NCBI RefSeq assembly: GCF_003334335.1
Contig: NZ_QOWQ01000067.1
DNA from: Escherichia coli
Lineage (GTDB): Bacteria > Pseudomonadota > Gammaproteobacteria > Enterobacterales > Enterobacteriaceae
Direction: 5' to 3' (one strand)
DNA: 9,120 nt
Shown: positions 6,861-8,433 of the stretch, in pieces
Numbering within the stretch: the stretch's first letter is position 1
Layout: each line of letters starts with the position of its first letter
Translations under genes and position numbers: made by a program
The notes under the pieces: generated by a model
Seen by the model: the letters and a program-made list of their open reading frames with translations, nothing else
Told to the model about the DNA's origin: nothing
Database searches by the model: none

Positions 6861-8366
6861 TTAAATTAAGGCTTCAATGCCGGTTTTGACGCTCTGTACC
6901 TGCGGTCCGATGATCACCTGCACGCTATGCGCATCAAGCATCACCACTGACAACGCGCCTGCCGCTTTCAGCGCCTGCTGATCGATAAGGCCCATATCTT
7001 TCACCACCAGACGCAAGCGGGTAATACAGTTATCAAGCGACTCAATGTTCTCTTTACCTCCGAGCGCACGTAGGATAAGCTCGTGATCGTATTTTGATTT
7101 TCCGCGCGCGCGGGTGTTCGCCTCGACGGCTTGCTGTGCCCCCTGAACATCCACCTCGCGGCCCGGCGTTTTGATGTTGTGTTTGAGGATGTACCAGCGG
7201 AAGACAAAGAAGTAGATGGCAAACCAGGCAATACCAACCGGGAACAGCAGATACCATTTGGTCGACATTCCCTGCATCACGCCGAAAATCAGCAGATCCA
7301 GAATGCCGCCGTCGGTATTGCCGATGGTCACTCCCAGCAGGGCCATTACCATCAGCGCCAGGCCAGACATGACGATATGGAAGGCGTAAAGCGCGGGGGC
7401 GATAAACAGGAACAGGAACTCAATCGGCTCTGAAATACCGGTGACGACGGAAACCAGCACGCCGGAAAGCAGCAACCCCTTAATGACCGGCCGATTTTCC
7501 GGACGCGCGGTGCGGTAGATGGCGTAAGCCACGGCGGGTAAACCGAAGATAAAGGTCGGCATAAACCCTTGTGACAGAAACGCGGTAACGTGCGGGCTAA
7601 ACGGCAGGCCGGCTTTGAGCTCGGCGTAGAAGATATTCAGCGCCCCGGCGACCTCATGGCCATTTACCATTTCAATGCCGCCTGCTGGGGTAAAACGCAC
7701 CATCGCCAGCAGGATGTGGTGCAGACCAAAAGGTTTAAGCAGCAGCACGCCTACGCCGTAGAGGAAGGGGCCGAAAACGCTGGTGCTCTGGATGATATGC
7801 CCAATGCCCGCGATGCCCAGCGCGACGTATTCCCACAGCATGGGAATGAACAGACCCACCAGCGACAGGGTGAGCGCGGTAATAATCGGCACGAAACGAA
7901 TGCCGCTAAAGAAGGCGAAGGCGTCATGCAGAACCGTGTCCTGAAAACGGTCATGCAGAAAATAGGTGATAACCCCAACCACAATGCCACCTAATACCCC
8001 CATCTCCAGGGTTTGAATGCCCAGCACGATCGATTGTCCTACCTGTTTCATGGTGGCGGGGTCGGCAAGCTGGTGGGTAGCCGTCAGGTAATAATTAATG
8101 CTCATGTTCATCAGCATGTAGCCAACGAACCCGGCAAAGGCAGCGACCGCTTTGTTGCGCTTGGCAAGCCCCATGGGGATCGCCATGGCAAACATCAGCG
8201 GCAGATAGGTAAAAGCAAAGCCACCGACCATAGCGATAAAGCCAAAGGTCAACTGGGTAAATTCGCCGCCCAGAAAGGGAAAACTAGTAATGGTGGAAGG
8301 GCTGGTGACTGAACTACCGATACCCAGCAGCAATCCCATAAAGGCAAGAAGCGAAACCGGGAACAT
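6861..8366 (-). CDS. PTS glucose-family EIICB component, MalX-like; annotated from the internal ATG because the ancestral 5' end is frameshifted
   Basis: 501-aa membrane protein with the EIIB phosphorylation-site motif DNCITRLRL (Cys codon at nt 7026-7028) and strong overall similarity to E. coli MalX as recalled. The ancestral start ATG at 8433, with GAGGAG 6 nt upstream, is out of frame because of a 9-bp A run (see 8418..8426). Confidence 0.85.
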   Translation of the reverse strand: MFPVSLLAFMGLLLGIGSSVTSPSTITSFPFLGGEFTQLTFGFIAMVGGFAFTYLPLMFAMAIPMGLAKRNKAVAAFAGFVGYMLMNMSINYYLTATHQLADPATMKQVGQSIVLGIQTLEMGVLGGIVVGVITYFLHDRFQDTVLHDAFAFFSGIRFVPIITALTLSLVGLFIPMLWEYVALGIAGIGHIIQSTSVFGPFLYGVGVLLLKPFGLHHILLAMVRFTPAGGIEMVNGHEVAGALNIFYAELKAGLPFSPHVTAFLSQGFMPTFIFGLPAVAYAIYRTARPENRPVIKGLLLSGVLVSVVTGISEPIEFLFLFIAPALYAFHIVMSGLALMVMALLGVTIGNTDGGILDLLIFGVMQGMSTKWYLLFPVGIAWFAIYFFVFRWYILKHNIKTPGREVDVQGAQQAVEANTRARGKSKYDHELILRALGGKENIESLDNCITRLRLVVKDMGLIDQQALKAAGALSVVMLDAHSVQVIIGPQVQSVKTGIEALI

Positions 8367-8417
8367 AAAGGTTTTCCCCAGACTTTGTAAAAACTCCCAT
8401 AATTTTGATTTAAAAGA

Positions 8418-8426
8418 TTTTTTTTT
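8418..8426. repeat. Homopolymeric tract (T9 on plus strand, A9 in coding sense) in codons 4-6 of the MalX-like gene
   Basis: Read directly. With 9 A the frame from ATG 8433 gives MTQKKIF then stop. With 8 A it would read MTQKKSFKSKLWEFLQSLGKTFMFPVSLLAF..., colinear with the MalX N-terminus. Confidence 0.85.
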
Positions 8427-8433
8427 GTGTCAT

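Follow-up and report, generated by a model that had tools for sequence, protein, structure and literature searches.

The locus analyzed here raises the question of whether a sugar transporter gene whose reading frame is interrupted within its first codons is broken, switched off, still expressed by some detour, or simply misread. The gene lies in a 9,120-bp stretch of Escherichia coli DNA (the window), which is the whole contig QOWQ01000067.1 of GCA_003334335.1. It encodes a MalX-like enzyme IICB (EIICB) of the phosphotransferase system (PTS) on the minus strand, and it carries nine consecutive A's (A9) where its relatives carry eight (A8). We consider it very likely that A9 arose by slippage at the A8 tract of this accessory malX-like gene, has been inherited clonally, and is a probable null or strongly weakened allele produced by ordinary decay. 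The initial annotation, made from the DNA letters alone, had listed a sequencing error, slipped-strand phase variation, and a fixed inactivating mutation as possible explanations; the last of these, widened to include a weakening mutation, is the one that we favor, error is essentially excluded by replication, and phase variation is unsupported.

On the minus strand, the start region reads GAGGAG, a six-base spacer, and then ATG ACA CAA AAA AAA ATC TTT TAA. The elements of this region and of the frame behind it (open reading frame [ORF]; lengths in amino acids [aa]) are as follows.

8445-8440, minus strand: Shine-Dalgarno (SD) sequence GAGGAG of the native start; duplex with the anti-SD of the 16S rRNA, -8.1 kcal/mol; the same GAGGAG is found in the Enterobacter ortholog.
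8433-8431, minus strand: ATG at which the malX-like gene natively (ancestrally) starts; start of the 523-aa protein WP_000192271.1 called by the NCBI annotation pipeline (PGAP) in A8 strains; kept in Enterobacter; aligns with residue 1 of K-12 MalX.
8426-8418, minus strand: A9 homopolymer (wild type, A8), a +1 insertion, as read from the sequence and compared with relatives.
8433-8410, minus strand: 7-codon mini-ORF MTQKKIF by translation, with the stop TAA at 8412-8410.
8375..8379, minus strand: weak SD-like GGGGA before the internal ATG; duplex, -5.5 kcal/mol versus -8.1 kcal/mol for the native one.
6861..8366, minus strand: residual malX-like ORF from the internal ATG 8366, 501 aa, without residues 1-22 of the native EIICB.

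The +1 frame is open from 8429 to 6861, and its first ATG, GTG, or TTG codon is ATG 8366, from which 501 aa are encoded. Deletion of one A in silico yields a 523-aa MalX-family EIICB that is 53% identical to K-12 MalX and colinear with it from residue 1, with no N-terminal gap. Hence, the initial annotation was right that A9 breaks the frame and that one A fewer gives a MalX-like N-terminus. It had also stated that translation must begin at the internal ATG 8366, behind a weak SD sequence, at the cost of about 23 residues. Indeed, this codon is the first canonical start and its SD duplex is the weaker one, but "must" goes too far, since the NCBI pipeline uses a different codon (CTG 8381); a loss at the N-terminus stands, with 22 as the exact number of residues.

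Two other codons were rejected as starts: ATG 8400, which lies in the dead frame and opens 28 aa only, and CTG 8381, whose only SD-like motif (GGGAG) is located 11 nucleotides (nt) upstream. In the NCBI annotation of A9 genomes, there is no frameshift flag, and a 506-aa MalX (WP_087895136.1) is called from CTG 8381 (8379-8381); this protein is present on 23 NCBI contigs. The CTG start chosen by the pipeline is without support, and the database entries for a "MalX" of 501 or 506 aa (WP_087895136.1 and relatives) stem from off-length alleles of the gene for the 523-aa protein and would be better flagged as frameshifted.

The A9 run is the sole homopolymer of at least 8 bases in the window. By itself, a run of A8 or longer is not improbable (two or more octamer matches were found in 40 of 200 shuffled sequences); the run is significant because relatives differ, otherwise identical E. 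coli having A8 and an uninterrupted 523-aa ORF. The malX-like gene is a second copy that occurs in 312 of 5,426 complete E. coli genomes (~6%). Among the 313 complete E. coli records with the locus, about 311 have A8, one has A9 (strain EC24), and one has A7 (SW070912); this count is based on 277 records that match the A8 90-mer exactly, and the sampled remainder are variants of A8 length that differ by single-nucleotide polymorphisms (SNPs). A pattern scan of metagenome contigs in which any run length was accepted gave nine A8 and one A9. Strain 2013C-4538 is otherwise identical to the window but has A8, and here the malX called by PGAP starts at the upstream ATG and encodes 523 aa. The window itself is absent from the complete E. 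coli genomes: EC24 shares A9 but is 13 SNPs away from the window and does not have the insertion sequence (IS) described below.

The ortholog of Enterobacter hormaechei has the same GAGGAG and ATG, followed by codons that do not form an A run (ATG ACA CAG GAA AAG TCG, MTQEKS). Since SD and ATG are kept there without the run, the start is ancestral and the tract belongs to the E. coli copy; the initial annotation of ATG 8433 as the ancestral start agrees with both PGAP and Enterobacter. Comparison of the two copies (8418-8433 versus 4001-4020 of L016) places the A8 tract in the E. coli copy only, which has CAA AAA AAA where E. hormaechei has CAG GAA AAG; the E. coli run was made by three substitutions to A, among them the one behind E4K. 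Relative to these intact orthologs, the A8 majority in E. coli and the uninterrupted gene in Enterobacter, the frame in the window is broken. The ortholog comparison that the initial annotation had proposed did not reveal A9 and an internal start in relatives; they have A8.

The protein whose start is affected is a MalX by both score and architecture. The restored 523-aa protein reaches 722.8 bits with TIGR02004 (cutoff, 632.2) and 712 bits with NF007509 (cutoff, 665), Pfam places PTS_EIIC at 19-357 and, behind it, PTS_EIIB at 453-484, and the motif LDNCITRLR, with the phosphorylatable EIIB cysteine, aligns with K-12 MalX and PtsG. On these sequence grounds, the gene is assigned to the MalX-family PTS EIICB proteins, with the qualification that 53% identity does not fix the substrate. 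A start at ATG 8366 removes 22 residues (M23 becomes residue 1), that is, the segment MTQKKSFKSKLWEFLQSLGKTF, with five Lys and one Glu. In this segment, 13 of 22 residues are identical to K-12 MalX, which equals the conservation of the rest of the protein; residues 12-23 align with residues 6-17 of PtsG, and residue 19, inside the lost segment, is the first of the Pfam EIIC domain. In the PtsG structure, the first transmembrane segment (TM1) is part of the scaffold and dimerization domain (PMC11393339).

In our model, replication slippage would have added one A:T pair to the tract (A8 to A9, codons 3-6) in the ancestor of one E. coli clone, which would then have passed on A9 stably. Ribosomes loading at the strong native ATG 8433 would terminate after 7 codons. 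Transporter could then be made in three ways: by weak internal initiation at ATG 8366, without the 22 conserved, lysine-rich residues before and at the start of TM1; by rare loss of one A in transcription; or by a rare +1 shift of the ribosome on the A run. Judged from the reading frame, A9 most probably abolishes or strongly weakens the function of the gene, and it possibly also lowers the expression of the two downstream genes by polarity.

Some points weigh against this reading. The loss of function is something that we infer from the frame, the two downstream genes are intact, and the 501-aa ORF keeps the Pfam EIIC domain save for its first 4 positions and has a usable ATG with GGGGA, so that a partly active transporter is possible. 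Finally, the three assemblies in which A9 recurs (see below) could in principle be re-sequencings of one isolate; random error would still be excluded, but the term "lineage" would be weakened.

The best-surviving alternative is that the allele is tolerated, enough transporter still being made either as the 501-aa product from ATG 8366 or at full length via slippage or a +1 shift. The ORF behind ATG 8366 is identical to the wild type and has its GGGGA 8 nt upstream, the stop of the mini-ORF is just 43 nt upstream, which makes re-initiation conceivable, and the genes downstream have stayed intact. Furthermore, the exact wild-type protein (MTQKKSF...) would be recovered if the mRNA lost one A or the ribosome shifted by +1 on the Lys codons, and nine A's is a length at which slippage matters in many bacteria, 9A-disrupted genes having been proposed as rescued (PMC1088944). 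However, the frame is repaired only if one A is lost or two are gained, and homopolymer slippage by E. coli RNA polymerase produces insertions and very rarely deletions (PMC5574713); in a reporter series with poly(A) runs and the host polymerase, no deletion rescue was seen (PMC6260861). Likewise, ribosome sliding is slight at A9 to A10 and robust only from A11 (PMC4363877). Since repair needs a one-A loss that is rarely made and sliding is slight at A9, little rescue is expected, and we rejected both transcriptional slippage as the main explanation and ribosome sliding as a major route. The 501-aa product, in turn, would have to do without 22 residues that are conserved like the rest of the protein and bear positive charges before TM1, and would have to be made from the weaker SD. 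Altogether, we regard a tolerated allele as unlikely.

If A9 were a sequencing or assembly artefact, the true run would be A8 and the ninth A a homopolymer miscall. What speaks to this are the two other lesions by which the window differs from its A8 relatives, an IS100 in mkoA and a TGG-to-TGA change in mkoB, two genes of the Mokosh anti-phage system at the other end of the window.

1..77, plus strand: end of IS100, 77 nt long, with 100% identity to its counterpart in strain 300444; the flanking gene resumes at base 78.
78..1858, plus strand: 3' remnant of mkoA (Mokosh type I helicase/ATPase), cut by IS100 with the junction at 77/78; a full-length homolog scores 2209 bits with PADLOC MkoA.
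1855..2871, plus strand: mkoB, cut short to 338 instead of 478 aa by a TGG-to-TGA change at 2869-2871 (W339*); an intact homolog scores 503 bits with PADLOC MkoB.

Matching contigs were found by an exact-sequence look-up of the 338-aa mkoB product. LYBF01000053.1 (GCA_002190205.1; 9,008 nt) and the Logan contig SRR1815430_386 (8,797 nt), the latter occurring in 4 samples, match the window with 100% identity along their entire lengths, including A9, the IS100 junction, and the TGA at 2869-2871. In window coordinates, the first bases of the three contigs are 1, 58, and 49, so that they contain 77, 20, and 29 nt of IS100, respectively, and because their starts differ, as they do with different assemblers or k-mers, we take them as independently assembled. 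The IS junction and the mkoB stop are also present in three more assemblies, whose contigs end before malX. Reproduced in independent assemblies together with shared private lesions, A9 is real, clonally inherited, and stable: it is a property of the organism and not of one assembly. The window has 0 SNPs over 5.1 kb relative to the A8 haplotypes L004 and L026 and is also identical to an A7 copy, from which we conclude that the length changes are recent and independent.

It is true that homopolymers are the classic place for indel errors, that off-length alleles are mostly singletons on different haplotypes, and that some off-length assemblies are error-ridden, such as L011 (GCA_025262435.1) with its other 1-nt deletions and split genes. 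L009 (GCA_974498195.1) with A6 and L013 (GCA_974490515.1) with A7 do not differ in haplotype across 5.1 kb, as would fit miscalls; the pair represents either a stepwise contraction within one clone or miscalls by the platform. Yet three independently assembled, 100% identical contigs with different ends all read A9. The exactly 77 nt of IS100 with which the window starts have the appearance of a k-mer overlap left by short-read assembly software, and a start of this kind is typical of short-read de Bruijn assembly. Such assemblies resolve runs of 8 to 9 nt well. An assembly error hiding a true A8, as considered in the initial annotation, is thus at odds with independent assemblies of the same clone, and we hold an artefact to be very improbable. 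The approach itself, by which a real change can be told from an artefact without reads, combines independent assemblies that share private lesions with a calibration against a neutral and an essential run.

For this calibration, three runs were compared.

malX-like A8 run: off-length in 2/313 (0.64%) of the complete E. coli records with the locus.
Non-coding, neutral A8 run upstream of yheO: off-length in at least 27/5,426 (0.50%), namely, 3 A9 and 24 A7.
7-base run in the essential gene rplB: off-length in 0/5,426.

The malX-like run does not differ from the yheO run (Fisher p = 0.67), whereas both differ from the rplB run (p = 0.003 for malX-like and p = 1e-8 for yheO). Read on the sense strand of yheO, the control is a T8 run that lies between the SD and the start codon of this gene (K-12 NC_000913.3, 3476442-3476449; L017, 36443-36450). 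It is polymorphic in complete genomes, at least 24 having 7 and at least 3 having 9, and some of these look like related strains. With 0 of 5,426 complete genomes off-length at rplB, run-length errors are rare in public E. coli assemblies, which argues further against an artefact. The calibration thus indicates that assembly errors are rare at such runs, that real changes are common at dispensable A8 runs, and that the malX-like tract is ordinary. This is in line with the literature, according to which indel rates in E. coli climb exponentially as runs get longer (PMC8510543) and, in Salmonella enterica, A/T 8-mers and longer are often mutated (PMC8538453). The off-length alleles are generic homopolymer slippage at a mutational hot spot, and a dedicated switch is unsupported.

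Such a switch would be slipped-strand phase variation, with the A tract turning the gene on (A8) and off (A7, A9) reversibly and at high frequency. The tract has the classic position for this, in the first codons (3-6) of a gene for surface transport; only the E. coli copy has it; and the lengths 6, 7, 8, and 9 all occur naturally on many haplotypes. Indeed, contigs that encode the 501-aa product carry A9, A7, or A6 across at least 10 SNP haplotypes, and A9 alone is found on six (the window, EC24, L007, L010, L014, and L025). These contigs are a frameshift-selected sample, from which we take haplotype diversity only; frequencies come from the complete genomes and the metagenome scan. On the other side, the tract varies no more than the neutral control (0.64% versus 0.50% at the yheO run), about 99% of the carriers are A8, and the clone is homogeneous, all three of its contigs having A9. 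Beside the known tracts of contingency switches, a run of eight A's is short for an E. coli that is proficient in mismatch repair. A-rich first codons may also be explained by weak mRNA structure near the start. Hence, the locus resembles phase-variable contingency loci in its first-codon tract and in a natural length polymorphism that switches the frame, but differs from them in that the tract is short, off-length at background level, and stable in the clone and the host is proficient in mismatch repair. We consider phase variation highly improbable. The same holds for its weaker form, a low-frequency on/off switch of the accessory PTS operon that is specific to E. coli, in which selection for an "off" phase, and not neutral decay, would account for the off-length states (A9 here and A6, A7, or A9 on no fewer than 10 other haplotypes); to this, too, we assign only a very small probability.

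Programmed recoding, in which the out-of-frame state would be by design and expression would come about by frameshifting, can point to a slippery A9 run at a frame junction but is refuted by the comparative data, the state not being conserved (~99% of the copies in E. coli have A8 and are in frame, and the Enterobacter orthologs are without the run), and deserves next to no credence.

Compared to known cases, the slippage allele that we favor is nothing new in kind: it is a standard slipped-strand frameshift in an A/T run, as long described in enteric genomes, and there is no new mechanism. Like the enteric frameshift pseudogenes with homopolymers of A/T ≥8, it is a one-base change of an A8 run, recurs on many backgrounds, and does so at background frequency; there is no essential difference, and the gene hit here is an accessory one. 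It also has something in common with genes rescued by slippage on 9A or 9T runs (Baranov et al. 2005, PMC1088944; tssM of Citrobacter rodentium, PMC4256274), namely, a 9A run at the frame junction and a one-base change of the mRNA that would restore the full protein. In contrast to those genes, a deletion is needed here, which the E. coli polymerase rarely makes on sense-strand A runs (PMC5574713, PMC6260861), and the disrupted state of the malX-like gene is not conserved. A literature search on malX together with homopolymer or frameshift found nothing specific to the locus.

The genes around the malX-like gene form an accessory island, in the order agaR, two fragments of a kbaY-type aldolase gene, malX-like, a gene for a PatB/MalY-like C-S lyase, a 629-aa gene, a fragment of rsmI, and the two Mokosh genes. 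In addition to those given above, its features are the following.

8547..8951, minus strand: fragments of a kbaY-type class II aldolase gene; match to the C-terminal part of NCBIfam KbaY; pseudogene fragments according to PGAP; a remnant of the donor context.
5674..6852, minus strand: gene for a PatB/MalY-like C-S lyase, intact; TIGR04350, 363.7 bits (cutoff, 340); 30% identity to K-12 MalY.
3771..5660, minus strand: 629-aa gene, third of the block, intact; no match in Pfam, NCBIfam, or PADLOC.
3288-3758: rsmI fragment, a stub beside the three-gene block.

The lyase gene is probably in the same operon as the malX-like gene, the gap between them being 8 to 11 nt. The product of the third gene (WP_000757210.1) is named "enterotoxin" by PGAP in some genomes and "alpha-galactosidase" in others. 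In E. hormaechei, the same three genes are located between an intact kbaY (encoding a 290-aa aldolase) and rsmI, and the Enterobacter proteins fall into the same 90% clusters as the proteins of the E. coli block. This suggests that the E. coli island is an imported Enterobacter-like block that has kept stubs of its old neighbors, beside a second copy of agaR.

The pair of malX-like and lyase genes is reminiscent of the malX-malY operon of K-12: the transporter is of the same family and has the NCITRLR cysteine motif, and a gene for a lyase of the PatB/MalY type is next to it. Unlike K-12 malX, the malX-like gene is an additional, accessory copy whose island contains fragments of kbaY and rsmI and resembles the Enterobacter block; furthermore, the lyase shares only 30% identity with MalY, the block extends to a third gene (629 aa), and there is no adjacent repressor gene of the malI type.

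Within this 9-kb island, the clone has three inactivating lesions, in the malX-like gene (A9), in mkoA, and in mkoB. With three lesions in one island, A9 in the malX-like gene reads as ordinary gene decay at a hot spot. In biological terms, this is the routine decay of an accessory island, a sugar uptake gene and both anti-phage genes being broken in one clone. The 338-aa mkoB product is also encoded by haplotypes that are more diverged and in which mkoA is intact (L032, L033).

Exactly between the two kbaY fragments (8798-8859) lies a perfect inverted repeat of 24 bp (30 nt at 93%) with a 14-nt center. In L008 (GCA_964047805.1), this center, TGGAATTTATGCCG, is reverse-complemented, which amounts to a small flip between the arms.

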